Counted from the first letter of the stretch, positions 3,858 through 61,983 are shown. The stretch is 64,000 nucleotides of DNA from a virus (IMGVR_UViG_3300040801_001435); one strand, 5' to 3'. Numbers and translations: made by a program. Notes: generated by a model from the sequence alone, not told the origin.

Positions 3858-4611
3858 TCATTTTCTCCTTTTTTAAATATTAATAATATAATTTATATTT
3901 CTATACTTACATTGACATTATTGAATAAAACTCATTATGAAATTCATCAATAATATTATTAAAATCATTAACCTTTGTTTCGTAATCCTTATTATCGGCA
4001 AACATAATTTTTGCACCAGTACTCCAAATTTCAATAAGCCACGATGGATACTCTACCCACCCTCTTGGATGAGCAATTAGTGGTATTGTACTATGATTAA
4101 TTATAGCAATTTTCAAATCACTTTCGTCTAATATCATTAAAATACTCCTCTCTTACATCAACTCCTAAATCGTTTTTCATTCCAAGAGAAACAGACTCAA
4201 TTTAATCTTTTACAAGTTTAAAGTTATACGATTTCATTAGTTGTTCTCCTATTAGTATATAACAGTTTCACCTTTAAGTTTGCCATCTACCAATCTAATT
4301 CTGAATGTTTGAATTTTTGGACGTTTTATTCCATCTGGAATTGGAGTCTTTAATATTAGTTCATTATATATTGAACCAAGAAGGGGTACAATTATTTTAA
4401 CTAATTTTTCCCATTTATTTCTTCGATACTAATATTTTTAATGCTATGTTTAATCCAATTAAACATTTTAGCATCATATTGAGCTGTTGATTTTGCGACA
4501 TTTTTATCTGGATATTCAATGCGCAAACCACTTTCAACCATCCACCAATTATTAGCAGCATGCTGCATAAGCTCTCTGTATGTCATTTTAGCTCCTTTTG
4601 GAATGACCGAC

Positions 4612-15147: not shown

Positions 15148-15921
15148 CTAATATGATGTTATGGTATATGTTTCTTTAAATTTATATATGATATCAACAA
15201 AAGTATTTGGAATATATTTCAAAGTTTCTTTAACAATCCATTCCGGGATATCATCATAATATGCTTCAGCTATTGCTCCTGCAATAGAAGCCTGTGTATC
15301 AGCATCTCCCCCAAGAGATATCGCTAATCTAATTGCATCTTCAAAACTTTCTGATTCAAGAAAACAGATAATTGCCTCTGGAACAGATGTAGCTGCTCTT
15401 GAAGAAAAATTATAGGATGGCCGAATACTATCAACTGTTCTATCGAAGTTGTATGGTGAAATCGTTTTACAAACATCTCTAATTTCAGATTTTTTATATC
15501 CTTCAATAGACATATAAATACAATATGCTACTAAATTGGCACAACAAATAGCATCAATATTATTATGGCTGCACTTGGCTGATTTTCTAGCTTCGATAAT
15601 AATATCTGTGTCTTCAAATGACCATCCAATTGGAGAAATTCTCATTGATGCACCATTTCCCCAACTATCACTTTCAAATGGATTTTTTATCCATTCTTTG
15701 AACATTTTGCCATATCCTGCATCAGGATATTTTTTTCCATACTTGACATACTTTTCTTGATAATCATACGTGTTATCAAGAATTGCCTCAGCAGTAGCTA
15801 TTGTTAATACAGAATCATCTGTAAATTTACAGTCTGAATGAAATAAATCAAAGTCTTTTGACTTGATTGTACTTCGTTCAAAACGACTACCAATAACATC
15901 ACCGATTATTGCACCGATCAT
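15148..15921 (-). CDS. ADP-ribosylglycohydrolase (DraG/ARH family)
   Basis: GAIIGDVIGS, FTDDS, GNGASMRISP, GGDADT. Confidence 0.93.
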   Translation of the reverse strand: MIGAIIGDVIGSRFERSTIKSKDFDLFHSDCKFTDDSVLTIATAEAILDNTYDYQEKYVKYGKKYPDAGYGKMFKEWIKNPFESDSWGNGASMRISPIGWSFEDTDIIIEARKSAKCSHNNIDAICCANLVAYCIYMSIEGYKKSEIRDVCKTISPYNFDRTVDSIRPSYNFSSRAATSVPEAIICFLESESFEDAIRLAISLGGDADTQASIAGAIAEAYYDDIPEWIVKETLKYIPNTFVDIIYKFKETYTITSY

Positions 15922-22222: not shown

Positions 22223-22480
22223 TTTTATAATTTCTATAGAAAAATAAAACTTGTTTTACTGTGCTTTCATTACGAAAGCACAATAGTTATATTTAGAAAA
22301 CTATGTGTTTACCATAAACGTTTGCTGATGTAGCAAAAGTCTTTTTTATTTCACAATGATTGCGATACTGTCTTTCAAATTCAGCAACGACTTCGGATGG
22401 TTTATCAGACACTTTGACGTTTTTTAACAATTGACAAATAACATCATCTGAAATATCAGGTCTCTCTATAATATTACTTA

Positions 22481-23412: not shown

Positions 23413-24660
23413 CTATGTTTTGAATTGTATAAATGTTGTTCTATTAATAAGTTGAGCAAAATGTTCTTTATCGGCTTTTCTCATAAATATATTAGATATT
23501 GCAATTGGTGTATAATCATATTTTCCAGACTTTTCAATATCATATTTATTTCCAAAAGATGGATAATCAGGTAAACTATTTGTTGTTTCTGTTATTATAA
23601 ATCGTTTAATATGTTCTTTTGCTATTTCCTTATTTGTGTCATATCTTTTTTGTGCATCATCTGGTGAATCTGGAACATAAATTCGACTATATGTCGTTGA
23701 TTGATTAATTGAATTTGATGATATTCCACCGTCCTTTGATACTCCTATTTTTCTACCATCTGTTAGTTGAACATCTTTAACACTACTTTTCTTTTTTGGA
23801 ATTTTTGATTGTGGTACTACTTTATGTGCGTATCGCATATTACTAGTAACAAATACAGGAACATGTCCATCTTTATTATATTTTTTAGAAATATCTGTGA
23901 ATGGAATTTCTTTAACTATTTTTGTCAATCTATCCATATCTGGAAATAAATTAATTTTTTGACTTTTTTGATCTTTTAATTTTAATATATTAATATAATA
24001 ACCTACAATTTCATTTTTTGTTTTCCCATCAAACGAAAAGTTATCAAAATAATAAAATGTGAAATTATTTGTTGGTTTATATATATCTATTAAATAGCTT
24101 GGAATATTTGCGTCATTTGACATTTTAAGTAACATTTGTTCATACTGAAAATTGTTCTTATTTTCAGTAGCACCAAAGTGTTTAAAATCAAATACATCAC
24201 CATAATTTTCAGTAAGCCATCCTTCATAATTTTTGAGAGCCTGATATGCCGTTATGTTATTTTCAATTGTATTATATGTATTTGTTGTTCCCATATAATA
24301 TAAAATAGGATGTACTAATACTAATGTTACATGTATATGGTTCTCATTAAAATTAAGAGGCCCTTGTGGTTCAACGTTAATACATAATAATGTTTGATTA
24401 AATATTGTTTTCCATTCTTTATCATGAAATTGACTTATTTCATCAACTATTCTAATATTTAGTTTTATTTCTGGAAAATCATTTAAAGAAACACGTTCCA
24501 TAAATGATTTTACAGTAATTTGTGGTAAAAAAATTTTAAGTATGGCTATACCAGCCATACTATAAACAGGGGATCTTAAAAAACAGCAAAAATTACAATC
24601 TACTACTTTTTGCTCTTCTATTTTTGCTGTTATTTCATAGTGAAATTGTGCTGAATTCAT
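23413..24660 (-). CDS. hypothetical protein, possibly tail/baseplate hub-like
   Basis: 415 aa, beta-rich N-terminus; no diagnostic motif, so the function is a guess. Confidence 0.3.
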   Translation of the reverse strand: MNSAQFHYEITAKIEEQKVVDCNFCCFLRSPVYSMAGIAILKIFLPQITVKSFMERVSLNDFPEIKLNIRIVDEISQFHDKEWKTIFNQTLLCINVEPQGPLNFNENHIHVTLVLVHPILYYMGTTNTYNTIENNITAYQALKNYEGWLTENYGDVFDFKHFGATENKNNFQYEQMLLKMSNDANIPSYLIDIYKPTNNFTFYYFDNFSFDGKTKNEIVGYYINILKLKDQKSQKINLFPDMDRLTKIVKEIPFTDISKKYNKDGHVPVFVTSNMRYAHKVVPQSKIPKKKSSVKDVQLTDGRKIGVSKDGGISSNSINQSTTYSRIYVPDSPDDAQKRYDTNKEIAKEHIKRFIITETTNSLPDYPSFGNKYDIEKSGKYDYTPIAISNIFMRKADKEHFAQLINRTTFIQFKT

Positions 24661-26528
24661 AATTGATTCATAATTTCCTCAAATTGTTCATATGTTATAA
24701 TTTTTGTTCCATTTTTCTCTGCTTTCATCATTTTGTTTGATTTCTTATTTGGATTATCTGTCACAAGTAACTGTGTTTTTTTTGTAATTGACTTATCTGC
24801 AACATGTCCTTTATTTTCAATATAATTGAAATACCAATCTCTTCCACGATCATAAGGATCTTTCCCAGTAAAACATATATTAATTGATTCTTTGTTAGTA
24901 TCTATTTTTTGCACATTGTCGTCAATTTTAATTATTTTAAGCAACGCATCAATATATGTTTTATTATCATGGAGATAATCAAAAATATCTCTTGCTCGTT
25001 CTATTCCTATATTTGGTATTTCCATTAGCCGTTCTTCAGAAATCCGCCGCAATAAATCAAAACTAACAGATTTAAGAATATCTTTACTAAGAGATCTACC
25101 AACACCATCAATATTGAAACTTGCTAACACTCTCCAATTAGGAACAGGATTATTTTTAACTTTATCAACTTCTAAAATGAAGTTTTTAGAAGAAACATCG
25201 CCAAACTTATCAAGTTTAATTATATCACTGTATGTCAAATTGAATACATCAACTAAATTAGAACACCCCAAGTCAGTAATTAATTTACTAACTGTGCTTG
25301 GGCCAATATTTTCAATTCCTATCTTTTTGATACTGTCTGTTAATCGTTTTTGTAATGTACTTCCACATACATCATTTAAACATCTTAAATTTGGACCATC
25401 CCATGTTAATATGGATTCACATGAGGGACAATGTGTTGGTGGAACTATTTTCTTACTATTCTTTCCTCTTGATATTAAACTGTGATACTGTGGGATTATT
25501 TCACCAGCTTTTTGTAAAATAATTTTATCACCAATTCTAATATCATTATCCATAACAAATTTCCAGTTATGTAAATTGACACGTTTATTAATATTTCCTG
25601 CTATTTCTACAGGTTCAACAATACCAACAGGAGTTATTGCAGATTTTCCTATACTTAATTCAATATCTATTATAGTTGTTTCACCAGTTGGATTTTTAGG
25701 TTTAAGTGCTAATTCTCCTCTTGGATGATGTGACGTATTTCCTAAAGACTCCTTATATTCTTTATCTTTAAGTTTTATTACAATACCATCCATAGGAAAT
25801 CCAAGCGATTTAAATTGATTTTTAGCATATTCTATTGCATCTGACATATTTACTAAATTGGTTTCTATACTGTATGTATTGAAATCTACAAAATGTATAT
25901 ATCCTAAAAACTTAGAATCAACAGTGTCTTTACCTAAAATTCCACCAACTGCACTTCTTGATGTTTTATATTTATCTCCATTTCCTCTAACAAACAATGA
26001 TCTATTGTTTTCAAAAACATCATCTCTAATTAGAATTTCGCCACGAACATCTTTTTGGACATCTGGTAAATGTATTACTATTGGTGTACCTTCGTTATCT
26101 TTTGTAATACACACGATGATACTAATTTTATCACTAAGATCAATTCCAACATCTTCTTTTGCTCTTGCTCTTGTATATAATAGTAATTTTTCATGCTCAA
26201 AATTTGCACTTATACCATCATATTTCGGTTCAATTATAAAAAGTTCACTTTCTGATCTTGCATATTTTTTTGCCCATAATAAAACATTATTAATATCATA
26301 TGCTTTATCAAGAGATATCATTGTTACTGATTTCTTTATTTTCTTCTTTTTGTCACTATTTGGAATTTCTTCTAAATAATTAATAATAAGTTCATTATTT
26401 GGATCAAGTTTTTTAAGTGCTTCTATAAGATTATCATAATCAATGTCAGATATTTCAGGAGTACCATTAATAAATTGTTGATTATGATATTCTATTGTTT
26501 CTTCAAGTAATTTAATTTCTTTTTTCAT
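24657..26528 (-). CDS. ligA: NAD-dependent DNA ligase
   Basis: ISDIDYD, EPKYDG, RGE, DGIVIK, TSHHPRGELALK, Zn finger CPSC...C, HhH repeats, C-terminal BRCT. Confidence 0.95.
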   Translation of the reverse strand: MKKEIKLLEETIEYHNQQFINGTPEISDIDYDNLIEALKKLDPNNELIINYLEEIPNSDKKKKIKKSVTMISLDKAYDINNVLLWAKKYARSESELFIIEPKYDGISANFEHEKLLLYTRARAKEDVGIDLSDKISIIVCITKDNEGTPIVIHLPDVQKDVRGEILIRDDVFENNRSLFVRGNGDKYKTSRSAVGGILGKDTVDSKFLGYIHFVDFNTYSIETNLVNMSDAIEYAKNQFKSLGFPMDGIVIKLKDKEYKESLGNTSHHPRGELALKPKNPTGETTIIDIELSIGKSAITPVGIVEPVEIAGNINKRVNLHNWKFVMDNDIRIGDKIILQKAGEIIPQYHSLISRGKNSKKIVPPTHCPSCESILTWDGPNLRCLNDVCGSTLQKRLTDSIKKIGIENIGPSTVSKLITDLGCSNLVDVFNLTYSDIIKLDKFGDVSSKNFILEVDKVKNNPVPNWRVLASFNIDGVGRSLSKDILKSVSFDLLRRISEERLMEIPNIGIERARDIFDYLHDNKTYIDALLKIIKIDDNVQKIDTNKESINICFTGKDPYDRGRDWYFNYIENKGHVADKSITKKTQLLVTDNPNKKSNKMMKAEKNGTKIITYEQFEEIMNQL

Positions 26529-31549: not shown

Positions 31550-32383
31550 TCATAAAGATACCGTTCGATATTCATGTTCTGCTATAGCAGACACATTATC
31601 AACTATTTTTTTTGGATCACATAAATATAATCCACTTCCACTAAATTGTCCTATTTCTAGAACATACCAATTTTTATCAAATTTTGCCTGACATATATCA
31701 AGAATCCAAACTGGATCTGGATTAAATTCAGAGGCAACTCTTTCAGCAAGATCCCATGCTTCGTTAGGGATGTCTATTGATCTTATTGATTGATCACACA
31801 TACGATACATACTTGCTGTGATAGGTTTGCCACCACAAATTACAAATCTATATTCACCAAGAATCGTTATCGGTTCAGCAACAACAATTTCTAAATTATC
31901 GTTATTATCTACGGCTAATGTTTCAATATCTGTGTGGAAATGTTCCCACATAAGTAATTTGCCTGTGAATGATTTATCATTATCACATGGTCTTGTAAAA
32001 ATACAATCATCAATAGCATATGTGTCAAATATCTCTTTATGTGTTTGTCTGAAATTGGCAACTGTTGTTATTTCATATTTTTGATTCAAAATGAAATCTT
32101 TAAGACTCGCATAATAGTTTTTACAATCGTATTTTGGATTGTTATGACCAATTACTCCTGGAACCCATCCAGGATAATCTTTATGAAGAACTTCACAAAG
32201 AGATATTGTTGCAATTACAACACAAGCACAATTTAGAGGAACATCGATTAATTCATTTTTGTTATATTCATAAACATTGCCAAGTGTTATTACTTTATAA
32301 TCATTATCAATTAGATATTGTTTAATTGCTTTAATATCGTCATCGTTTCTTTTGAAATCACCAAATACCCAAATTGGTTTCAT
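31550..32383 (-). CDS. ATP-grasp protein (DUF4343-like)
   Basis: IFTRP..NDKSFTG, EYRFVI, WILDI, LEIGQFSGSGLY. Confidence 0.8.
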   Translation of the reverse strand: MKPIWVFGDFKRNDDDIKAIKQYLIDNDYKVITLGNVYEYNKNELIDVPLNCACVVIATISLCEVLHKDYPGWVPGVIGHNNPKYDCKNYYASLKDFILNQKYEITTVANFRQTHKEIFDTYAIDDCIFTRPCDNDKSFTGKLLMWEHFHTDIETLAVDNNDNLEIVVAEPITILGEYRFVICGGKPITASMYRMCDQSIRSIDIPNEAWDLAERVASEFNPDPVWILDICQAKFDKNWYVLEIGQFSGSGLYLCDPKKIVDNVSAIAEHEYRTVSL

Positions 32384-36644: not shown

Positions 36645-36898
36645 AATTCAATCGCTTCTAATTCAGTAGTAGCACCAGGGCCTTCACCAGTACAATCATT
36701 ACAATACATTGCAGTTCCATTATATGCAATATTTGAAGATTCCCCACAAAATGGGCATGGTAGTATCTCTGGCATTTTTTCTTCTACATCAAATGTTTCT
36801 TTGATGTAGTCATGCAATGTAATCATTCTTTCAAGTTTTGATGACCATAATTTTGTAAGATTTATATCTATGTGAATTGTCCCTATAGCCATTACCAT
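36626..36898 (-). CDS. Lar-family restriction-alleviation-like protein
   Basis: LPCPFCGE...CNDCTGEGP....EAIELWNKR. Confidence 0.7.
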   Translation of the reverse strand: MVMAIGTIHIDINLTKLWSSKLERMITLHDYIKETFDVEEKMPEILPCPFCGESSNIAYNGTAMYCNDCTGEGPGATTELEAIELWNKRS

Positions 36899-37098
36899 AT
36901 CTCCTTTCCTTGTGGTGGACCACTGTTGATTTCTTTGTGAATATTTTCAGGAGTAATTTTATCCAGCAACTTGTCTATTGGTTTTCGTTTTACTCCTAAT
37001 CTATCAAGTTCTGCGTCAGTAAAACATGTTTTAGATCCATTATTAATAAGATATTGTAATGTTTCTCGTATACTTTCTTTAATTGATTTTCTCATGCT

Positions 37099-37350
37099 TT
37101 ATTCCTTTCCATATACACTATATAATAGTCCCTTTGCTTTTTTAGTCAATTTGTATGATTGGTCTTCATTTTCAATGATCAATCCTAAATTAATAGCATG
37201 TTGTGGTTTACTTTTAAGAATAATGTTATCAAGTGTTTTTGTTCAATTGCATAAATAAGCATTTGTGCCAATTCTGCTTCAGATTCATTTTTTCCTAATA
37301 ATCCATATGGGTGTTCTGTTGGAATATTAAAATCTTCATAAAGTAATCAT
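37099..37350 (-). pseudogene. frameshifted small gene
   Basis: AGGAG RBS and ATG 37350; protein-like segments (YEDFNIPTEHPYG..., TLDNIILKSKPQ...YGKE) lie in different frames, joined at the A5 run 37236-37240. Confidence 0.45.
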
Positions 37351-37468
37351 ATAATCTCCTTAGTTGAAAAATAAAAAACATAGTATATCTGATCCACATA
37401 ATGCTTATTTCTATATATTAATTGAAATAATTAAATAGATATTCATAATTATTTATTAAAAAAATATT

Positions 37469-37491
37469 ATTGCGGCAAATTTCGCCGCAAT
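37469..37491 (-). terminator. hairpin built on the CGCCGCAAT motif
   Basis: attgcggc-aaatttc-gccgcaat just downstream of the 37498 stop. Confidence 0.55.
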
Positions 37492-37888
37492 TAACCATTA
37501 ATATTTAACATATCGTGGAATTTCTTTATTTTCATTCAAAAGGTATTGTCCAAGAAGCCACTTTCGCATAAATATATCATAACACTTTTTACAAAAAGCC
37601 ATATCAAATGCTGTGTATATTTTTCTATCAGTAACAACTTTAAGTCCATCAACTCTCATTTCATAGTAGTCTGTTCTAATACGTTCATGTTTATATAATA
37701 TATTATCACAATTAATACATCTAATTTCAGATAATGTAATATTTGGTGTATGATATTTCTTTTTGAGTTTTTCAAAAAACGCAAGTTCCTTAATATGGTC
37801 ACATTTGTGTGACGATACTTTTTCTTTATTGTCAAATAATTCATAACAATATTTACATTTAAACACTTTCTGTTCAACTAAAAAATCA

Positions 37889-43726: not shown

Positions 43727-44919
43727 TATATAAATCTCCCAAACCTATCAACTTCCGTATATGGAATAAGTGATACAGTTCTTCCTGGTTTTTGACTACT
43801 TACTGTAATTGGACAAATTCTTCCAAAATGTGTTTCATGAATTGTTTGTATTTCTTTTGGAGGATGTTCTACACCAGGAGATACCATATTAACTTTATGT
43901 TGAGGAATACTACTGAAGAAATTTACTGGTTCATATATATAATTTCCTGATAATCCTCCCATTTTCTTTCCAGCGGTATTAGTTTGTTGTTTTTTACCAG
44001 AAGCTCTAAAATATTTAATTATAGACATATTATCTATTTTTATTTCATCATATAAAATCCCTCGCCAAACTTGTTTAGCGAAATTTGCGATTTTATCAAA
44101 AAATGGCCGCAATAACAACTCAATAAAAATTAATCTTTTATTAGCCAAGTCAACAAAGTTAAACGTGTCTTTATGAATATATTTATTAAGTGCCCATACT
44201 AACAAATATTCCAAATCAGAAGAAGAATAACAAGTATTATACAATTCATCTGTATAATAGTCAAAAATTACATCAGATATAAATTGTCTTGCTTTATCTA
44301 TATCATCAATGTTATTATTTCCAAAAGCATTTCTAAAATAAGTTACAATTTCCTCATCCGGATGAGTATCATGTTGTTTTTTGTGATTTTTAAGAAACGC
44401 ATTATATAATTCTAAACTTTCAACCTTTTCAAAAAATAATTGAAAGAAATATGATAGTGGTATATTTATTCCAGTTAAAATTGCAATATCATCTTTAAAA
44501 TAAATAGTTAAACCATTCAACAATCCATAGAATTGTATACTTTTTTCTTTGATAATAATAGGATAATCAACAACATACATTGCTGGAACATATATTGTTC
44601 CATTTAGATTGAATGTGCATCCATCTAACAATGTTGGTATTAGAATGTTTAAAAATGTTTTTTCATATTTTTCTTCATCTGTTGTATATGCGTCAGTTTT
44701 TATTATTAGTTCGCTAAAACAACTATTAAATAACCCGATATAATTTATCCGTTCTTTGAAATCTATATTTTTAACATTAATATATCTATTACCAAATTTC
44801 AATAAATATTCCATAGCAACAGAAGCAAAATATGGTATTATGCTATATTGATATTCTCTGAAATTAGTAACAGATAATATATCAGTATTTGGTTGTTTTC
44901 TTTTTTGTAGTGTATTCAT
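43726..44919 (-). CDS. phage RNA polymerase beta subunit, N-terminal part
   Basis: Ends with IHETHFGRICPI...GR (beta VHPTHYGRVCPI region); coupled to the beta-C gene. Confidence 0.75.
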   Translation of the reverse strand: MNTLQKRKQPNTDILSVTNFREYQYSIIPYFASVAMEYLLKFGNRYINVKNIDFKERINYIGLFNSCFSELIIKTDAYTTDEEKYEKTFLNILIPTLLDGCTFNLNGTIYVPAMYVVDYPIIIKEKSIQFYGLLNGLTIYFKDDIAILTGINIPLSYFFQLFFEKVESLELYNAFLKNHKKQHDTHPDEEIVTYFRNAFGNNNIDDIDKARQFISDVIFDYYTDELYNTCYSSSDLEYLLVWALNKYIHKDTFNFVDLANKRLIFIELLLRPFFDKIANFAKQVWRGILYDEIKIDNMSIIKYFRASGKKQQTNTAGKKMGGLSGNYIYEPVNFFSSIPQHKVNMVSPGVEHPPKEIQTIHETHFGRICPITVSSQKPGRTVSLIPYTEVDRFGRFI

Positions 44920-46880
44920 TACAATTGTAATGCCTTTAATAGTGTTGTCACTACTTTCTTTGTTCCAACTTCCATCGTAATATCTGTTGGCATTTCATAA
45001 TATCCTTTTTCTATAAGTTGTTCTAATAAATTTTCTTTTCCAGCAGTATAGTCAGATTTAACAGTATATAATTCATGAAGTGCTTTAGGACATCCAGAAC
45101 TTAATATAGCTTCGGCTTCCATTTGTCCTACTCTAACGCCACCTTTTAGTGCTCTACCCTTCACTGGTTGTTTTGTAATAGATTTATATGGACCAACATT
45201 TCTAGATGCTATTATTTTTTCTGATATTTTATTTAATTTAACAGTATAAATTGGTGCACACATTATCCCATCAACAGTCTTATCTATTGCTGGAAATGGT
45301 AGCTCAATACGCAAACATTGACGCATATATTGTAAAAACTTTCTGCTTTGAAATACTGGTTCATTCAATTGCACTGAGTTGTTTTTAATCTTTTCAATAT
45401 TGATGTGTTTAAATGGTGGTGCTTCAACAAACAAATTGGAAGCAAATATGCTATCTATAACAGTTTTTCTAATAGACGTATCATTATCCATATTATTAAT
45501 CAATCTTTCAACATCACTACTATATTCAATATCGTTGAAATTATCAATGATATTTAGTTTAATCCATTTAAGTGTATCTGTAATTTTATCAGGATTTGTA
45601 CGAATATAGTTATCACAAATCATCATATTTTTTGATATTAATGCTTCAGGCATGACACTTATATTCATTCGACTTGGAACACCAAATGAATTAAACATTA
45701 CATCAATTGGTTTATTTGTTATTGTTGATATTGGTCTTAATTCATCTGGTAGAATATGTCCAACAACACCTTTTCCTGCATATCTATTGCATATTTTATC
45801 ACCAACTTTTGTATTTTCTTCTTTATAAATATCACACTCGATAATATATACAGCATTCAATATATCGTTTCTATTGGTTGTTATATTATCTTGTCTATTT
45901 GAAAATACAAAGTATTTTGCCATTATAAATTTGCAATATTCGTCACTGAAAGTATTGTTCAAGTCGAAAAATGCATTCATTGCATATTTCTTAAAATACA
46001 AAATATGCATGTTCTCTAAAACATTTTGTAAGTTATCATCAATAAGTCTAACATCATCTTTCAACTTATGAATTCTATATCCTTGAATAATACCACTGTT
46101 TATTTTTGTTTCAATTGGTTCTGTAGAGAAATTTGATGACCCATGATCAAATCCTATCATATCAGATAGATTCATTGATTTAAGCATTATTGTCATTTTT
46201 TGCTTTATATCGCTCATTGAATGATAATCTGATATTTTTGGTTCTATTTTCATTGCAAATATATTATTTGTTATTTGCTGACCAATAGCAGGAAAATATT
46301 TGAAAGATTCTACATCATTTTTATATATTGGTTGAAATATTGAATGTTCAAATACCGGAATAATAACTCTATCTATATACCGGTGTTTTGCTTTATTTGC
46401 AAAACTTTCAGATATAACAATTCCATCTTCATGATTATATCCAAAAAATGGCATCATTGCTGTATAAGCATTATATCCAAATGATGGTACTCCTGTTCTG
46501 AAACAATCATATTCGTATATAATGTCACCTTTCATAAAAGGTGTATTTGATGGTAAACAAAATCGTAAACTTGAACTGAAAATACCTATAGATTTTTTAA
46601 TAAGAGGTATTTCTTTAATTTCTATTTTATTCAATCCTGTATAGTGTATAACAATAATGTCATTATTTTTATAAATAACATTCCCATCATCTTTTGCTAT
46701 ACATATTCCAAGTGGACTATTATTTGTTATATCTCGATAATCTGTTGATGTCACATATGGTATTTCACAATTAGTGTGTGTTAGTGCTTGTGTTATTTGT
46801 TTTGCTGCCATCTGCATTCTTGTGCTATCACAAGAACCATCAAACGGCTGGCCTGCTAGATTTGAGCTTACTATCGACAT
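44919..46880 (-). CDS. phage RNA polymerase beta subunit, C-terminal part
   Basis: RMQMAAKQITQA, GYNHEDGIVIS, GDKICNRYAGKGVV, GVPSRMN, KGGVRVGQME. Confidence 0.93.
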   Translation of the reverse strand: MSIVSSNLAGQPFDGSCDSTRMQMAAKQITQALTHTNCEIPYVTSTDYRDITNNSPLGICIAKDDGNVIYKNNDIIVIHYTGLNKIEIKEIPLIKKSIGIFSSSLRFCLPSNTPFMKGDIIYEYDCFRTGVPSFGYNAYTAMMPFFGYNHEDGIVISESFANKAKHRYIDRVIIPVFEHSIFQPIYKNDVESFKYFPAIGQQITNNIFAMKIEPKISDYHSMSDIKQKMTIMLKSMNLSDMIGFDHGSSNFSTEPIETKINSGIIQGYRIHKLKDDVRLIDDNLQNVLENMHILYFKKYAMNAFFDLNNTFSDEYCKFIMAKYFVFSNRQDNITTNRNDILNAVYIIECDIYKEENTKVGDKICNRYAGKGVVGHILPDELRPISTITNKPIDVMFNSFGVPSRMNISVMPEALISKNMMICDNYIRTNPDKITDTLKWIKLNIIDNFNDIEYSSDVERLINNMDNDTSIRKTVIDSIFASNLFVEAPPFKHINIEKIKNNSVQLNEPVFQSRKFLQYMRQCLRIELPFPAIDKTVDGIMCAPIYTVKLNKISEKIIASRNVGPYKSITKQPVKGRALKGGVRVGQMEAEAILSSGCPKALHELYTVKSDYTAGKENLLEQLIEKGYYEMPTDITMEVGTKKVVTTLLKALQL

Positions 46881-47630: not shown

Positions 47631-50600
47631 TTAGATTAACCGACCATAACATAATTTGAAGTAAACATTCATGTCGGTTTGTTCAGATATTTCAAAATTA
47701 AAATTAGGAAGTGTTTTCCTATTAGGCTGAAATAGTGCTCCTAAGAATGGATCAATATTTACAGCTATACTTTTATCATTGAGTTTTTTGGTTATTTTTT
47801 TATTTTGATTATATCGCCAAAACTCAACAGGGTCATTTTTGTTATTTGTTAGAAACATATTTGCAAATATCATTTCTACAAACGAAGAATATGGTGTACC
47901 AACAGATAAAATATATTCCATCATTTTTTGATAATATACACTGGGATGTTCAACTGTATATTTTCTTGTAGTCTCTTTAGTAATTAGTAGTTGATTTACA
48001 CCATTAATAATTGAAATAACATCATCGTTATATATTTCATAATAATTATCGTTATATATTAATGTTGTTCCATCTTTTTTTTCAAATCCATTTAGATTAT
48101 ATATTTCTTCTGGGAAATCATCATTATTAAAATGACATAATATTTTATTATCATTTAATTCGATATCTACTAAATGATTCTTCATAAACGATATAATTTC
48201 TTTTTTTACGTTAATATTTGCTGCACCACTAGTATGAAATGTTTGCATTGTTAATTGTGTTAATCTTTCAGATATGCTTTGTGCTGCAATTATACCAACA
48301 TATTGTGATACAAAGTTACGTTCACCAAAACACTTTTTACACATTTTAAATTTAGGATTAATGCATGTTATTGGAGATCGTATATAAACGTCTTTGCCGA
48401 TAAAACTTATTGCAGTTTCTAAATCAAATGTGCCTGAGTTATTATCAATGACATAATTTTTACCAACAAGTGAATAAGCATGATTTTCATTAATAACATG
48501 TATTTTTAAATAATTTGTTGTACAACAATCATCCATATCTATCTCTAAAGGACTTAATGCCATTGCCAATGATCTTTCCATATAGCCGCTATCAGGAGTG
48601 GCTTTACTTTTATCACCAATACCTTTTCGACTTCCTGGAGCACCTCTGAAGAATTCCTCTTCAGTAAATCCTATTAATAGATTTGATTTTATTGGACTTT
48701 TAATGATTTTGTTATTATCATCAGAAACATATCCGGCGTTTATACATATTTTCGCTAATTGATTAGCGTTAACTCTACTACCGGATTTATAAACATTTAA
48801 TAATTTATTGGTATTGCTACAAGATTCTATACATTTTTCTACAAGTGCTTTATTTACACAATATCCTACCATTATATTTTGTTTTGGTAGATTTTTAAAC
48901 ATCTGTTTATGTTTGTCATTGACAAACTCTAACATATCATCTATGTTCATTGATGGCGTATGGCTTGTAGAACTTATGAAATACATTAATTTTTTACTCA
49001 AATCAGTTAGTCTATCATAATAAATTGCTGATGTCTCTGAGTCTTTTAAAATCTTTTCACTTATTTTTCTTGATGTTTTTTTATCAATAATAAAGTCTAT
49101 TTCAATATCATCAACGAACCCACACCACTTATTTAATAAACATAATCCATATGGATATATATTGTCATTAAATTTAACAGGTTGATTCAAATTATTATCA
49201 TATAATTCATCTGATTCTGGCAAAGTTTGTAAATTTTCAAGTTCAATTATTGGTTTATCATTACATGAAATTTGTGTTGATAGAACATATGCGCCGTATA
49301 ATGCTTCATGTCTTATTGAAGAAAGAATCCTGTTATCTGATTGGTAATGTGTTATATTTTTAACAAATGCATTTTCTTTCATTTGCTTCAATGATTCTAC
49401 ATCATGTACATAATATAATGCTAATTGATCACCATCTAAATCAGCATTCATCATTTCTAAAATTGGCGGCGATAATGCTATTGTTGTATAATCGTTATCT
49501 TCTGGAACAATTTCAACAACAGGTATGCTATGCGCCCATAATGTTGGTGGTCTATTCAAAAACACCAATCTATATAGTTGAATAGTTTCATCTTCATTTT
49601 CACAAAACCAATCCAAGAATTCTTGAAATTGTTCTTTTGATTTGTCAGACTGCATAAATTCATCATAACAATAATCATATTCCAATCCACGAATACGTGT
49701 CATATAGTACATGAAATGTGGTTTCCATAATGTATATAATATATCTTTACTTACTTTAATTTGATATGTTGGTAATGATGGATCACATCGTATAACTGCT
49801 CTTGCGCTAAAATCAACATTTTTACCAAGAACACTACCACGAATTAATCCTTTCTTTCCAGACAATTCATCATAATATGATTGATATATAACATTAACAT
49901 AATATTGATATTTTGATGCTTTTATATCATATTCAATTATAGTTGGGTCTATAAATGGGGAAGCATAATATTCATCAATATCATGTATATTCATTTTTTT
50001 AAGAAGTATATCAATCCACATTTGTTCATCATCATTAATACGACTAGCTATTGCCGCATTTGTTCTTTCGTATATTAATAATGTTGTATAGAACTTATTT
50101 ATTGGTGGTGTTCTAACCACTTTTGTTTGTGGATCATAAAATAATGCTCTCAAACTTGGTGGAATAACATGAATAAATGACATTACACATTTATCATAAA
50201 TATTTTCTATAACTGGCACTTTAATATATTTAGCTATTATTTTTAAGCATAAATAAAAACTATATATACCTGTTATATTTATTGGTAATAATAAAAACCC
50301 AGCATGATGAATAAATCGATTAAATACTTTAACCTCTGATAGGTCGTTACTTATTCCTATATATCTTTCGGTGTTTGTTAAATAATCGGCTCTATTTGGG
50401 TTTAATATTATACTATGTGTATTTCCTAATATTTTTGTTAATAGTGCTTTCGTAGTTGGTTTGAAACATGGAAATGTAAGATTGATCTTTCCAAAAACTT
50501 CATATCTTAATTCATTAGAATCACAAACAACGCCACACTTTGGACATTTTTGCTTTTCAAATAATGATCTGTCTCTATAATATTTACATTCTTGTCCGCA

Positions 50601-50729
50601 TGTATAGTTATTAACAGGTCCGAATATTTGTTCTGAAAACAGTCCAAATGGATCTATTTTCATATTCTTTAGAGTACCTTTTGGAGATGTTACATATCCT
50701 CCTAGTTCTGGATATATTATATCATTCAT
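47631..50729 (-). CDS. phage RNA polymerase beta' subunit (compact, unsplit)
   Basis: GLFSEQIFGP, Zn ribbon, GKKGLIRGSVLGKNVDFSARAVI, NRPPTL, NADLDGD, bridge helix, trigger loop TQLTMQTFHTSG. Confidence 0.95.
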   Translation of the reverse strand: MNDIIYPELGGYVTSPKGTLKNMKIDPFGLFSEQIFGPVNNYTCGQECKYYRDRSLFEKQKCPKCGVVCDSNELRYEVFGKINLTFPCFKPTTKALLTKILGNTHSIILNPNRADYLTNTERYIGISNDLSEVKVFNRFIHHAGFLLLPINITGIYSFYLCLKIIAKYIKVPVIENIYDKCVMSFIHVIPPSLRALFYDPQTKVVRTPPINKFYTTLLIYERTNAAIASRINDDEQMWIDILLKKMNIHDIDEYYASPFIDPTIIEYDIKASKYQYYVNVIYQSYYDELSGKKGLIRGSVLGKNVDFSARAVIRCDPSLPTYQIKVSKDILYTLWKPHFMYYMTRIRGLEYDYCYDEFMQSDKSKEQFQEFLDWFCENEDETIQLYRLVFLNRPPTLWAHSIPVVEIVPEDNDYTTIALSPPILEMMNADLDGDQLALYYVHDVESLKQMKENAFVKNITHYQSDNRILSSIRHEALYGAYVLSTQISCNDKPIIELENLQTLPESDELYDNNLNQPVKFNDNIYPYGLCLLNKWCGFVDDIEIDFIIDKKTSRKISEKILKDSETSAIYYDRLTDLSKKLMYFISSTSHTPSMNIDDMLEFVNDKHKQMFKNLPKQNIMVGYCVNKALVEKCIESCSNTNKLLNVYKSGSRVNANQLAKICINAGYVSDDNNKIIKSPIKSNLLIGFTEEEFFRGAPGSRKGIGDKSKATPDSGYMERSLAMALSPLEIDMDDCCTTNYLKIHVINENHAYSLVGKNYVIDNNSGTFDLETAISFIGKDVYIRSPITCINPKFKMCKKCFGERNFVSQYVGIIAAQSISERLTQLTMQTFHTSGAANINVKKEIISFMKNHLVDIELNDNKILCHFNNDDFPEEIYNLNGFEKKDGTTLIYNDNYYEIYNDDVISIINGVNQLLITKETTRKYTVEHPSVYYQKMMEYILSVGTPYSSFVEMIFANMFLTNNKNDPVEFWRYNQNKKITKKLNDKSIAVNIDPFLGALFQPNRKTLPNFNFEISEQTDMNVYFKLCYGRLI

Positions 50730-51199: not shown

Positions 51200-51634
51200 T
51201 TATTTCCACAGGACACATAAAAGTGTATTATTTTCAATAATAATTTTACTTTTTAATAGCACAACATATGCTATTCCATCTCTAATATATCTAATGTCAA
51301 TATCTTCGGAAACATTGCTAAATATTTTCATAAATAAAAATTCATCGCTTTTTATGGTTTTATTATCAATGGGAAGTTTCCATGCTTGTCCTTGTTTAAG
51401 AACTAATGGTTTTTTATGTGTGTTTTGTATAGATCCTTCTTTACCTGAGATCAAATTAATAAAGTCGATTTTATAAACTTGATCTGTTCCGAAATCCACA
51501 TGGATTTCTATTGGTGATTGCTCTATTTTTGGTTCTTCAATCACCATATTTTCATCATCATATGTCATTATAATCTCCTTTTTGAACAAAAAGAATATTT
51601 CTGTATTAAAATTATTCTGAAATAAAATATCCAC
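51200..51634 (-). CDS. hypothetical protein
   Basis: ORF with an internal AAGGAG-ATG start near 51567. Confidence 0.55.
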   Translation of the reverse strand: MDILFQNNFNTEIFFLFKKEIIMTYDDENMVIEEPKIEQSPIEIHVDFGTDQVYKIDFINLISGKEGSIQNTHKKPLVLKQGQAWKLPIDNKTIKSDEFLFMKIFSNVSEDIDIRYIRDGIAYVVLLKSKIIIENNTLLCVLWK

Positions 51635-51649: not shown

Positions 51650-51691
51650 TCATTTTCCTCTGTAGATTTTAATCTTTTTCATGATCTTCAT
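51650..51691 (-). CDS. minigene 3 (MKIMKKIKIYRGK)
   Basis: AAAGGAG RBS, 13 aa, followed by hairpin gcccc-tttg-gggt. Confidence 0.55.
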   Translation of the reverse strand: MKIMKKIKIYRGK

Positions 51692-51737
51692 TAGATATCT
51701 CCTTTCTGTGTAAATAATATTAATCTCTTTTCTCTGG

Positions 51738-51767
51738 TTATCGTCCTATGAAAATCTTGATCTTCAT
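51738..51767 (-). CDS. minigene 2 (MKIKIFIGR)
   Basis: Shares ATGAAGATCA start and KIKI..GR/K end with minigene 3; weak RBS. Confidence 0.4.
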   Translation of the reverse strand: MKIKIFIGR

Positions 51768-51787
51768 TTCTGTTAAACTAAAAAATC

Positions 51788-51894
51788 GAGCTGCAACTAT
51801 TTCTATCCCTCTTAGAAATTTCCTCTTGCAGCCCGAATACTTGTAACCAATTAGGGGTGTTGTTCCCTAATCGCAGGCCATATTCATTGGCCTG
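51788..51894 (-). ncRNA. GC-rich three-hairpin RNA element
   Basis: Stems caggcca/tggcctg, attaggg/ccctaat and gggctgcaa/ttgcagctc (G-U works only on the minus strand). Confidence 0.5.
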
Positions 51895-51908
51895 GCGCCT
51901 TCGGACTT

Positions 51909-51944
51909 TTACTTGCTTGTGATGATCTTAATGTTTGAATACAT
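51909..51944 (-). CDS. minigene 1 (MYSNIKIITSK)
   Basis: AAAGGAG RBS; TATAGAAAT motif about 42 nt upstream. Confidence 0.5.
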   Translation of the reverse strand: MYSNIKIITSK

Positions 51945-51989
51945 GAATACAATCTCCTTTCCTCGTATTTAGGTCCATCTTGTATATTT

Positions 51990-52469
51990 CTATATATTTT
52001 GGTTGATTATTAAAGAAACTGAAACATCTTTTACACGACCAAATTCAAGTGCTTCTTGTTTGTCGTGTAAAAATATATCAATTGCTTTATTATATCGTTT
52101 GTTCATAAGATCGTTTACAGTATATATTCCTCTATATTCTGGATCTATTTCATCACTATACACATACACTTGTCTTCCAGCAGTCCATCCATATTTGTGA
52201 TATAAATCTCTTGATACAGCAATTGTTCTAGGTGCAACTTTTGTTCCAAATGCTGTTATTGTTGGTGTGCTATCGGTTTGTCCCCTTTCAGCATTATATG
52301 CTGTTACTGTTACAAAAGCATGATGTTTGTTTTTAACCGTTATCGTTTTTGTCTGTTCAAGAATAGCTGTTCTATAACTAATCTCTGATGTCTTTCGCAA
52401 CACGTTTGTTATTCGTGCATCCAAATAACAAACGGATAATATTAATAATATTAATGTAATTATTCGCAA
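51990..52469 (-). CDS. 3D-domain (MltA-like) cell-wall protein
   Basis: N-terminal hydrophobic segment; VTAYN..GQTDSTP, IAVSRDL, DLMNKRY..AIDIF. Confidence 0.85.
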   Translation of the reverse strand: MRIITLILLILSVCYLDARITNVLRKTSEISYRTAILEQTKTITVKNKHHAFVTVTAYNAERGQTDSTPTITAFGTKVAPRTIAVSRDLYHKYGWTAGRQVYVYSDEIDPEYRGIYTVNDLMNKRYNKAIDIFLHDKQEALEFGRVKDVSVSLIINQNI

Positions 52470-52483
52470 AATTAAATTCTCCT

Positions 52484-53317
52484 TTATGTGTATATTTTGT
52501 CTCCATATATTTCGCTGAGAATGTTAAATAGTTCTACAGTATCACATTCCCAATATTTTCTGTATTCTGTTCCTCCATAATAATCACTGTCTGAAAATTC
52601 ACCTTCTGATACACAATTGTTATAAATTTTCTTATATTGTAAAAATGATATTGTTGGATCGATTTGTTCTATTAATGAATCAAAATCATCAAAACTAACT
52701 GATTCTCCTGATGATATTGTTGTTAGTGTGTTAGACCAGCATGATCCGCTTGTTCCACCACCAGACCATGTATCTGACCTGAAATTATGAGTTATACCAT
52801 ATTTATCAAGAAACATTTGATAATCTGATTTTCTCTTTGACTGTTTTGATACTATTTTGACATCACATCCAAACAATTCTTTAATTTCAGATAAATGTTC
52901 ATTGGGATCTATAAGATCAGTATTTTCAATAGTTATCTTACTATTTTTATCCCGACGATATTTATCATTATACAAACATATTTCTTTATCGGGCATAAAA
53001 TATATAATATCAATATTTGATAATTTAGATGAAATTATCTCTGACATTGCTTTTATAAATTCTAATGTTGGAACAAATCCATCAATAATTAAATGCTTTG
53101 TATTCAAATTGCTGCAATATCTTCTAAGTCTATCACAAAAATGTGCATAATACACGCCTGTGCCATTAAACCCTAAATCAATATCAACATATTTTGCCTT
53201 GGTAGGACCTGACTTTCCATATCGTTTCCATCGTTCTTCTTTCAATGAATCATATAGTTTTGTAGTTTCATAAGTCTTACCACTTCCTGGTAGTCCAATT
53301 GGGAATGTTAATCGCAT
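52484..53317 (-). CDS. P-loop kinase-domain protein
   Basis: IGLPGSGKT, LIIDG. Confidence 0.65.
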   Translation of the reverse strand: MRLTFPIGLPGSGKTYETTKLYDSLKEERWKRYGKSGPTKAKYVDIDLGFNGTGVYYAHFCDRLRRYCSNLNTKHLIIDGFVPTLEFIKAMSEIISSKLSNIDIIYFMPDKEICLYNDKYRRDKNSKITIENTDLIDPNEHLSEIKELFGCDVKIVSKQSKRKSDYQMFLDKYGITHNFRSDTWSGGGTSGSCWSNTLTTISSGESVSFDDFDSLIEQIDPTISFLQYKKIYNNCVSEGEFSDSDYYGGTEYRKYWECDTVELFNILSEIYGDKIYT

Positions 53318-59834: not shown

Positions 59835-61454
59835 ATGGAGGAACAAGTGCGACTATCACAACGACTGATAATAATAGACAACGGATTAGATTTTAAAGGA
59901 ATATTACATTGTGGTGTATTGCGTGTTGTTGATAAATTTTGTTTTGAACTGAAATTAAGACGGTTTAAAATTATCAGTGATGAAATTTTCGCAACAGTTA
60001 AATCTGAAATAAATAAACACTCATTTGATAGAGTTGATTTGATTGACAAGATTGATAATGATATATTGTTCACTCATTTAATGTCGTTGTATGATTGTGA
60101 ACAATATTATCAATTTTTAGGTAAACAAATTAATCATATTTTAACGAATGACCCGGATAAAAGCAACAATAAATATTATCGATTTATTATTGATAATAAA
60201 CTTAAAGTTATTTTATCTCTTATTGATGCTAAACGATTGTATTCTGATATCCAATCTTTTGTAAATAATTATATGACGCTTGATAGTATTTATAAACTAA
60301 TTATGACGCAACAATTGTCAGATACTTCTATTGAAGATCATCATGATCCTGAATATTATGATTATGTAAATAATGTTGCTGCTGATGTAAAAGAAACTCT
60401 TCATGAAAAAGATCTACAAAGTGGGATCATTGAACAATCGTATTTTGATGATGTATTGGATTTATGTTTAAATAATGCTGTTAAATCATATATTTTACAT
60501 GAGACACTAACATATTTTGGAACGAATTCCGCCGCAATAAAACACGAAGACAATAAAATAATATTACCAAGTCTTTTCAGAAACATACCATTTTTCCCTT
60601 CAAGTTATCTTAAAACATTAATTATATCTCTGTCAAAAATAGGCGAACATAAATTAGATCATTATATAGGACAGATTATTGTTTATCTTAAAAGTAATAA
60701 TAAAGACCAAGTTAAAATATTTATAGCTACATTTTTATTGTTTTTATATTATTTGGTTAAAACTTATAAAACACATCCAGGAGATGTCTTGTTGTCATTA
60801 GAAATTTGGATTTCTAAAATTGAAACTCAAACTAAATTATTGAATTATTATACACAAGATAATAATTTAACATTTGAAGTTATTTCTGTTAAAGAAGAAA
60901 ATGAATTTGATAAGATATCAGAAATATCAGAGAAACATAAATATCTACTTAGAGTTTCTCCTGATGAATTTGTAACTACTGTTTTTACCGAATATATCGA
61001 TTTAAAAGAAAATAAACAAAAACCGATGTCATTTAATTTATCACATCCAACGGTTATTAATATTACTCGTTACTTTTTTAATGATAACGTGACTATGCTT
61101 ACAAATTATAGACCAAATCAAGAATCAAATCCAGAAGTGATAACTTTTGCATATGGGTATTTTCTTAACTTTGTTTCTAGTTCTGATTTGTCTAAAGATA
61201 TTCTTCTAAAAAATACAACTATTCCAATCACGGTATTAAAACTATTTCCTATATTATCGAATAATATTAATAGTAAAAATTTTAATAAAGACATTGTAGA
61301 TACGTTTGTTTTTTATAAAACTGTTTGTGGGTTTTTAGAAGACCCTTCTATATTTCAGCATATTGATATATTGTATATAGTATTTCAAATTATTATTCCT
61401 TATTATTATCATATGTATGAACAGACAACTTTTACTGATTACTTTTTGGGATAA
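59835..61454 (+). CDS. large hypothetical protein
   Basis: 539 aa, no recognised motif. Confidence 0.75.
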   Translation: MEEQVRLSQRLIIIDNGLDFKGILHCGVLRVVDKFCFELKLRRFKIISDEIFATVKSEINKHSFDRVDLIDKIDNDILFTHLMSLYDCEQYYQFLGKQINHILTNDPDKSNNKYYRFIIDNKLKVILSLIDAKRLYSDIQSFVNNYMTLDSIYKLIMTQQLSDTSIEDHHDPEYYDYVNNVAADVKETLHEKDLQSGIIEQSYFDDVLDLCLNNAVKSYILHETLTYFGTNSAAIKHEDNKIILPSLFRNIPFFPSSYLKTLIISLSKIGEHKLDHYIGQIIVYLKSNNKDQVKIFIATFLLFLYYLVKTYKTHPGDVLLSLEIWISKIETQTKLLNYYTQDNNLTFEVISVKEENEFDKISEISEKHKYLLRVSPDEFVTTVFTEYIDLKENKQKPMSFNLSHPTVINITRYFFNDNVTMLTNYRPNQESNPEVITFAYGYFLNFVSSSDLSKDILLKNTTIPITVLKLFPILSNNINSKNFNKDIVDTFVFYKTVCGFLEDPSIFQHIDILYIVFQIIIPYYYHMYEQTTFTDYFLG

Positions 61455-61496
61455 AAATAATTCACTATGTGTCCAAGTGACACATAGTATTTTTTT

Positions 61497-61705
61497 GTAA
61501 ACAAACAGAGAGCCCATGACATCCGAAGACATCATGGGCTCTCTGTTTGGGAAGACAACACCTCTAGTTTATTAGTGTCTCATAGTCCGAAGACTACAGA
61601 GGAGGACTCGCTTGCGCGAAACCTACCAAATGATAGTCATTTCACGCAAGGTTGACCTTGAGACATAAAATTAAAGAGCCTATTCAAATAGACTCTTCTT
61701 TTTTT
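61497..61705 (-). ncRNA. unidentified structured RNA
   Basis: Two cUUCGg tetraloop hairpins, a multibranch core, G-U pairs valid only on the minus strand, upstream TATAGAAAT at 61716-61724. Confidence 0.65.
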
Positions 61706-61983
61706 CACCTTTATAATTTCTATATGTATTTTTTAATTATACAAATTAATGTTTAGCTGTAGATATTACTGGAGCAAAATTTCCAGTTTTAATTGCTTCG
61801 GTGATATGTTTATCTAATTTATCTCGTTCCATCATTATTTTATTTAATGATATTGGATCAGCAACATCAACAACATATATTAGCAAGTCAAGTAAACTTA
61901 ATAGATACAATAATTCTGTGTCTATAAGTGTTCCACTTGAAATCTTGCTAATAAATAATTCTATTGTGTGTTTTATATTTTCT

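Follow-up and report, generated by a model that had tools for sequence, protein, structure and literature searches.

How do phages that encode their own multisubunit RNA polymerase, and must therefore set its amount, control its synthesis? Little is known of this control, and the question is raised here by a 420-nt gap in the viral sequence IMGVR_UViG_3300040801_001435, analysed as a stretch of 64,000 nt (hereafter the window). The window has a G+C content of 28% and encodes RNA polymerase genes of the multisubunit type, with β′ at 47631–50729 and a piece of β at 44919–46880 (Pfam). The gap extends from the stop codon, at 51990, of a gene for a 159-residue protein to the start, at 51568, of gB, with which the window opens an operon that continues with the HU-like gene gC and with β′. 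The reading that we favour, at somewhat less than even confidence, is that the gap is a conserved leader with a ribosome-controlled terminator placed before the gB/HU-like/β′ operon. A translated leader in this position suggests that ribosome traffic feeds back on the transcription capacity of the phage.

Non-coding DNA makes up 11.5% of the window, and this gap and that at 61450–61730 are the two most G+C-rich of those listed (0.36). All of the elements that it contains lie on the minus strand. The promoter word TATAGAAAT (51994–51986), which overlaps the stop codon of the 159-residue gene, is followed by a ribosome site, AAAGGAGA (51960–51953), and by a mini-open reading frame (mini-ORF) of 11 codons, mg1 (51944–51909, stop TAA). 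The 5′ arm of a putative antiterminator stem, P1, begins 1 nt past this stop codon (51907–51900). P1 encloses the hairpins P2 (51894–51874) and P3 (51872–51850), and its 3′ arm (51837–51830) overlaps the 5′ arm of a predicted two-tier intrinsic terminator, T1 (51836–51786), composed of an 11-bp outer stem (51836–51826 with 51796–51786), a 7-bp inner stem and a U6 tail (51785–51780). Beyond T1 lie mg2 (51767–51738), with nine codons and no ribosome site, a second AAAGGAGA (51705–51698) and the 13-codon mg3 (51691–51650, stop TGA). A terminator scan identified the hairpin T2 4 nt past the mg3 stop; it has a 5-bp G+C stem (51645–51633) and, with its U-rich tail, spans 51645–51620. The promoter word, ribosome sites, ORFs and hairpins reported in an earlier note on this DNA were all recovered in place, and the P1 stem and two promoter-like words at 51774 and 51605 are added here to that description. 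The resulting module is compact, with two mini-ORFs and two terminators in about 375 nt, and is testable.

Several features set this gap apart from its surroundings. AAAGGAGA is located 7–9 nt upstream of the ATG of both mg1 and mg3. Combinations of a ribosome site and a start codon elsewhere in the window mark real genes, and intergenic ones preceding tiny ORFs are restricted to mg1, mg3 and a single further case at 37350. The 10-mer ATGAAGATCA occurs on the minus strand solely at the starts of mg2 and mg3, and AAGATCA is present in three copies in the region, compared with about 0.09 expected from its window-wide rate. Relative to shuffled sequences, the fold of the 441-nt region has z = −3.9 and that of the hairpin core z = −4.0.

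P1 and T1 are mutually exclusive, and the former can be reached by a ribosome on mg1. In the nascent RNA, up to the emergence of the T1 3′ arm, the minimum-energy fold closes P1 (−38.0 kcal/mol), while in the full RNA the T1 fold (−45.3 kcal/mol) is favoured over the P1 form (−40.3 kcal/mol). Masking a footprint at the mg1 stop codon abolishes P1 in the computed folds, and masking one at the mg3 stop codon removes T2. The start codon of mg3 pairs with the 3′ half of mg2 in thermodynamic folds and has a probability of 0.05 of being unpaired.

Is this arrangement conserved? When the region was compared by blastn with 50,697 phage records, no match was obtained, nor did single-protein scans of IMG/VR with the 159-residue protein and with β′ give any; alignments were needed. 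Searches with β′ yielded a small clade, and a profile of the HU-like neighbour gC yielded further members, including the closer relative L169; a metagenome scan added just two short close contigs. The promoter word is shared by relatives with β′ only 40–47% identical to that of the window.

L169 is 69% identical to the window in gC, 49% in gB and 62% in the 159-residue protein at the amino-acid level, a divergence that should leave neutral DNA impossible to align. Even so, its gap presents, in order, a promoter word, a ribosome site, ORF1, the P1 5′ arm, a substitute for P2, T1, a ribosome site, ORF2 and a hairpin. ORF1 of L169 (L169:3432–3467) has 11 codons, the same length as mg1, and occupies the matching place. 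Directly after its stop codon, 17 of the 19 nucleotides of the P1 5′ arm and junction are identical, as are all 13 of the core shared by the P1 3′ arm and the T1 5′ arm (13/13); the T1 3′ arm shows one change, from G-U to G-C, and is followed by a U-run. The hairpins enclosed by P1 were not retained, P2 being swapped for an unrelated hairpin and P3 being absent. The folds of L169 reproduce the same competition of 5 kcal/mol (T1, −20.2 kcal/mol; P1 form, −15.1 kcal/mol), so that the antiterminator and its exclusion of T1 are kept in both genomes.

The second half of the leader is also clarified by L169. Its ORF2 aligns best to mg2 (28/33 nt), of which it is the positional orthologue, and also to the 3′ part of mg3 (23/30 nt), with which it shares the peptide core K-I-K-I-Y-[RK]-G. 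These alignments indicate that ORF2 was duplicated in the window, where a ribosome site is present in the downstream copy, mg3, and has been lost from the upstream one, mg2. The three related minigenes of the earlier note are indeed present as ORFs but are better described as ORF1 and a duplicated ORF2, a duplication that also explains its observation that two of them start with ATGAAGATCA. No promoter word is found between T1 and ORF2 in L169, from which it follows that ORF2 would be transcribed there only by read-through of T1. The small terminal hairpin of L169 includes the last two codons and the stop codon of ORF2 and is followed by a U-run.

Among the more distant lineages, the corresponding slot of L006, L009, L010, L011 and L012 contains a promoter word, a ribosome site with an ORF of 9–15 codons and strong hairpins that end in a terminator, followed in turn by another promoter word and by the operon. 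The cassette of L175 has neither a U-run nor a second promoter; its mini-ORF and hairpins lead directly into the ribosome site of gA, which makes it, as judged from its sequence, a genuine 5′ leader of that operon. A ribosome site followed by a short ORF is thus found in L169, L006, L009, L010, L011, L012 and L175 as well as in the window. The probability that a ribosome site, a start codon and an ORF of at least nine codons appear in a cassette after dinucleotide shuffling is 0.03–0.2, and the combination is present in five of the six relatives tested (p of about 3 × 10⁻⁵, obtained by multiplying the shuffle values). Two observations were made alongside these comparisons. In L001, a 37-codon, very basic, Ser/Gly-rich ORF (L001:4619–4732) occupies the slot before the operon promoter and overlaps the end of the homologue of the 159-residue gene. 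In L175, a 1.2-kb A+T-rich stretch upstream of the operon (L175:998–2237) is devoid of called genes and contains two promoter words together with several hairpins; it may represent an origin or a further RNA locus.

The peptides themselves carry a signature. Most of them combine an [IV]-x-[IV]-hydrophobic core with Gly as the second-to-last residue, and were compared with 880 ATG-started ORFs of 9–15 codons taken from all frames of the same loci. A penultimate Gly is found in 2.4% of these controls and in at least six of eight independent lineage groups (p = 5 × 10⁻⁹), and the core in 11% of the controls and in six of the eight groups (p = 5 × 10⁻⁵); both p-values are generous, the pattern having been defined post hoc, after the data had been seen, which counts against the reading proposed here. 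The conservation that the earlier note had sought in related phages was found for the length of ORF1 (in L169) and for the signature in most lineages, and was lacking in L010 and L011, the peptides of which do not display the signature. Peptide charge is not kept, ranging from acidic to basic across the relatives. The Ile and Gly codons vary between lineages, and five of the six differences in the aligned core of L012 and L005 fall at third codon positions. This pattern of varied codons and retained residues points to selection on a putative translated product or nascent chain. The mini-ORFs are rich in Ile (27%, compared with 12% in the control ORFs), and in all three ORFs of the window Lys-Ile is written AAG-ATC, the rarest form of this pair (1/85 in the phage genes, in which ATC accounts for 10% of Ile codons and AAG for 13% of Lys codons). 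The use of AAG-ATC is compatible with slow decoding and equally with a repeat at the level of the nucleotides.

How might such a leader operate? What the analysis shows is a set of sequence elements, the extent to which relatives keep them and the competition between their folds; that the ORFs are translated, that the phage polymerase terminates at these sites, that ribosomes dwell and in which direction the switch works are inferred. In a first stage, P1 would close first on the emerging RNA and, by holding the 5′ arm of T1, would act as an antiterminator. A ribosome located at, or dwelling on, the stop codon of ORF1 would hide the P1 5′ arm, allowing T1 to form and a short ribosome-bound RNA to be released; if ORF1 were untranslated, or if the ribosome lagged at the rare Lys and Ile codons, P1 would form and the polymerase would read on. 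In a second stage, a ribosome ending ORF2 close behind the polymerase would prevent the formation of T2, the 5′ arm of which lies 4 nt past the ORF2 stop codon in the window and inside the last codons in L169, so that a finishing ribosome is expected to block it. Acting in series, these stages would determine how far the strong promoter supplements transcription of the operon from its own weaker proximal promoter, and would also give rise to abundant short RNAs. The β-branched hydrophobic core and the Gly two residues before the stop codon may cause the terminating ribosome to linger; conserved residues beside the stop codon make sense if it must do so, and the signature could represent a new nascent-chain signal. 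We regard as doubtful, and offer as a speculation, the stronger form of this proposal, in which the products of the mini-ORFs are `parking' peptides of a new type that hold the ribosome at the stop codon and in which synthesis of the clade's polymerase and HU-like protein is tied to host translation by two serial ribosome-gated terminators.

A number of observations weigh against a ribosome-controlled leader. By a rough estimate, an 8-bp P1 would arise beside a terminator arm by chance with a probability of about 0.1, and the P1/T1 overlap gains its weight because L169 conserves the arms. In L006, L009, L010 and L011 the terminator forms at equilibrium under any masked footprint, for which reason an equilibrium switch common to the distant relatives was dropped, and the alternative pairings in the nascent folds vary by lineage; the distant relatives therefore share no common switch design, and the switch is conserved only between the window and L169. 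Most lineages have a promoter-like word between T2 and the operon, which would render the operon independent of read-through. In the window this word is TACAGAAAT, which is kept before the operon, although its variant is not enriched in non-coding DNA, and L175 has none. L005 shares the layout but has no canonical start codon, and L001, L171 and L172 have no clear cassette. Finally, the two stages respond in opposite ways to ribosomes, and the regulatory logic of this is not obvious.

Alternatively, the peptides could be the product. We consider it unlikely, but a serious competitor, that the mini-ORFs are stand-alone tiny genes, each equipped with a promoter, a ribosome site and a terminator, the abundant 9–15-residue peptides of which act in trans; the hairpins and terminators would then simply ensure that the message, like that of mccA in the microcin C operon, is short, stable and plentiful. 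Conceivable targets are a cytoplasmic peptide receptor and a protein of the host or the phage able to accept a short β-strand, and such genes would be among the smallest conserved genes of phages. The signature, which is kept at the level of the peptide with varied Ile and Gly codons, is found in two ORFs of the same leader, and the promoter that follows the terminator in most lineages makes the cassette self-contained; in L001 the slot is taken by the 37-codon basic ORF. Some Gram-positive bacteria produce short hydrophobic pheromones, streptococcal SHP among them, with similar Ile/Val-rich C-termini that end in Gly. Against a role in trans, neither charge nor most of the residues are kept, L010 and L011 lack the signature, the ORFs of 9–15 codons encode no export segment, and no receptor-like protein (helix–turn–helix plus repeat) or peptide-modifying protein was detected by Pfam among 18 neighbouring and mid-sized ORFs of the 64-kb window. 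A secreted pheromone with its receptor, of the SHP/Rgg or arbitrium type, was rejected for want of both an export segment and a receptor among the ORFs scanned. Moreover, the Lys-Ile pair takes its rarest form in all of the window ORFs, unlike in highly expressed genes, and the letters best conserved between the window and L169 are those of the RNA arms rather than those of ORF1. The case for the small cationic effector suggested by the earlier note is weakened: a cationic character is not maintained in the relatives, while the signature is, and the peptide may still have a role.

It is also conceivable, if rather improbable, that the RNA itself is the product, a stable non-coding small RNA with incidental short ORFs, the ribosome site of which acts as a stabiliser only; in Bacillus, a ribosome bound near the 5′ end blocks 5′-exonucleolytic decay. 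ORFs of about 11 codons are near the mean for random frames in such A+T-rich sequence (an estimated 9% or so of codons being stops), the codon usage is not gene-like, the hairpins in every cassette exceed the needs of a terminator, and the window has another promoter-led structured RNA with no ORF at 61450–61730. However, no ORF is shorter than nine codons, as about half of random ORFs would be expected to be (in part an estimate). Conservation extends to the penultimate Gly, the Ile/Val core and the length of ORF1, which is equal in the window and L169, but not to the hairpins enclosed by P1. An antisense target of the RNA was sought in the window and discarded, as none reaches 14 nt, the longest complementary match being of 13 nt; a same-strand match of 20/21 nt at 37887 lies within coding sequence and was taken as chance. 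Far less probable is that frames of this kind reflect a type I toxin–antitoxin-like unit or mere chance in an ordinary spacer between a terminator and a promoter. Short frames are favoured by A+T-rich sequence and terminators are expected after an upstream gene, but the ribosome site, start codon, length and peptide signature are conserved across lineages; as for a toxin, which the earlier note had proposed, ORFs of 9–13 codons leave no room for a hydrophobic segment of transmembrane length, and there is no opposing promoter word, the only plus-strand word of the TATAGAAAT type at the locus lying inside the T1 palindrome. Hardly any credence can be given to a ligand-sensing riboswitch, in which a metabolite would stabilise the P1 stem of a P1/P2/P3 three-way junction and turn T1 off. 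Its architecture would resemble that of an ON-type switch, the P1 3′ arm being shared with the terminator across a 5 kcal/mol gap; nevertheless, Rfam gave no match even at E = 10, and a ligand pocket would not survive the changes seen in L169, which retains P1 and T1 but has an unrelated hairpin for P2 and no P3. Of the three options raised by the earlier note, a translation-coupled attenuator for the polymerase operon is the best fitting, given the P1/T1 geometry and the retention of its arms in L169.

The window has 16 exact copies of TATAGAAAT, 13 of which are non-coding and point at the next gene, often 30–55 nt upstream of AAAGGAG and a start codon (examples are at 3905, 8279, 17468, 22238, 29362, 43179, 55150, 55191 on the plus strand, 59769, 59795 on the plus strand, 61724 and 62629). 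It also precedes genes in L001, L005, L006, L009, L010, L012, L169 and L175, and is a predicted clade-wide, oriented intergenic promoter word that provides a useful handle for the annotation of such uncultured genomes; a full-text literature search for it returned nothing relevant. At 22238 in the window and at L001:4742 an ATG lies exactly 7 nt past TATAGAAAT with no ribosome site, an arrangement that suggests leaderless or near-leaderless messages. Three near-copies lie inside the leader. GATAGAAAT (51807–51799) falls within the inner stem of T1, which is palindromic (51799–51819), each strand carrying a promoter-like word (GATAGAAAT, minus; CTTAGAAAT, plus); no such two-strand word was seen in the relatives. 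AACAGAAAT (51774–51766) overlaps the ATG of mg2, and four of its six copies in the window are non-coding; an internal promoter at 51774 is possible in the window but was not relied on, as L169 has no equivalent. TACAGAAAT (51605–51597), 28 nt upstream of the gB start at 51568, is the putative proximal promoter, and the variant TA[AC]AGAAAT is found upstream of the operon in L006, L169, L171 and L172, with no non-coding enrichment in the window.

The operon itself comprises gB (51568–51200), gC (51196–50726) and β′ (50729–47631), all on the minus strand, the first two recognized by homology across the relatives and the last by Pfam. The gene order in all relatives is gA (when present), gB, gC and β′; the possibility that the leader is a decayed gA gene was dismissed, since tblastn detected no trace of it in the gap. 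The product of gC has 156 residues, and its AlphaFold2 model (predicted local distance difference test score, pLDDT, of 82) displays an HU/IHF fold with an extra long C-terminal helix, HU and IHF being the top PDB matches in Foldseek. The HU-like label given to it in the earlier note is therefore supported by fold only, whereas sequence searches with gC found nothing. As gC adjoins the polymerase gene throughout the clade, its modelled product may be a polymerase-associated DNA-bending factor.

Further observations concern the rest of the window. The G+C-rich gap at 61450–61730 (minus strand) holds a promoter-led structured RNA with a fold z of −10 and a 22-bp perfect hairpin, and no ribosome site or mini-ORF. 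A 600-nt minus-strand stretch at 36898–37498, which follows a TATAGAAAT promoter (37415), has a ribosome site and a four-codon ORF, the stop codon of which overlaps the ATG of a 14-codon ORF (ATGA). Beyond these it has nothing but short fragments in various frames, and it could represent a disrupted gene or a site of recoding. Between a DHH phosphoesterase gene and the 159-residue gene lies a gene for a 277-residue P-loop protein (GLPGSGKT; 52484–53317, minus strand) that is missing from the corresponding place in L169. Pfam also identified, on the minus strand, an R2K-clade ATP-grasp protein (31550–32383), an ADP-ribosylglycohydrolase (15148–15921) and an NAD-dependent DNA ligase (24657–26528). 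Scans of the whole window for tRNA and tmRNA detected no genes, and Rfam returned chance-level rows only, both for the whole window at the gathering score and for 1 kb with E values of as much as 10.

Among the papers listed by the literature searches, none was found to describe a translated leader in front of the RNA polymerase genes of a phage, and no title or abstract matched leader-peptide attenuation with phage multisubunit polymerases. The proposed leader nevertheless has counterparts among bacterial systems. In pyrBI-type attenuation and in parking of the TnaC type, only a closely following or a stop-parked ribosome prevents termination. The second stage of the leader resembles these in the placement of the T2 5′ arm in or just past the last codons of ORF2 and in the conserved residues beside the stop codon; with regard to arrest of the TnaC/Erm type, an apparent conservation of a penultimate Gly and a β-branched core near the stop codon was found. 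It differs from them in that no nucleotide-sensitive pause site or Rho site was identified, and its motif is unrelated to that of TnaC.

The classical leader-peptide attenuators trpL, hisL and the ilv leaders (modelled in PMC1183508) share with this leader an ORF, mutually exclusive antiterminator and terminator stems, a decision that would be made by ribosome position, and the enrichment of one codon class, here Ile, with Lys in addition in the window lineage. Unlike theirs, the operon downstream (gB, the HU-fold protein and β′) makes no amino acid, and an attenuator that senses amino acids was for that reason rejected in spite of the Ile-rich ORFs. Nor is there an upstream `region 1' with which the 5′ arm of the antiterminator pairs; those leaders have nothing equivalent to the conserved penultimate Gly, and the polymerase involved here is probably the phage's own. 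As with rnTrpL, an attenuator-derived RNA with a dual function and a peptide of its own (PMC6614838), a second role in trans is conceivable for the leader RNA released by termination, and perhaps for its peptide; no trans target of the leader RNA was found within the window.

The closest parallel to the first stage is mccA of the microcin C operon, in which the intrinsic terminator loses strength through the RNA upstream of it and regains it when the ORF carries a ribosome, yielding an abundant, stabilised, short ribosome-bound RNA and a minor read-through transcript (Zukher et al., 2014; PMC4231749). As in the leader described here, a very short ORF with a ribosome site lies directly behind the promoter, and on paper the wiring of stage 1 would be that of mccA. 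The present leader departs from mccA in having two predicted ORF/terminator stages, a C-terminal signature that the ORFs share and, in most lineages, a promoter after the terminator. Whereas MccA is a seven-residue substrate of the enzymes encoded downstream of it, the genes that follow the leader of this clade encode an HU-like protein and an RNA polymerase.

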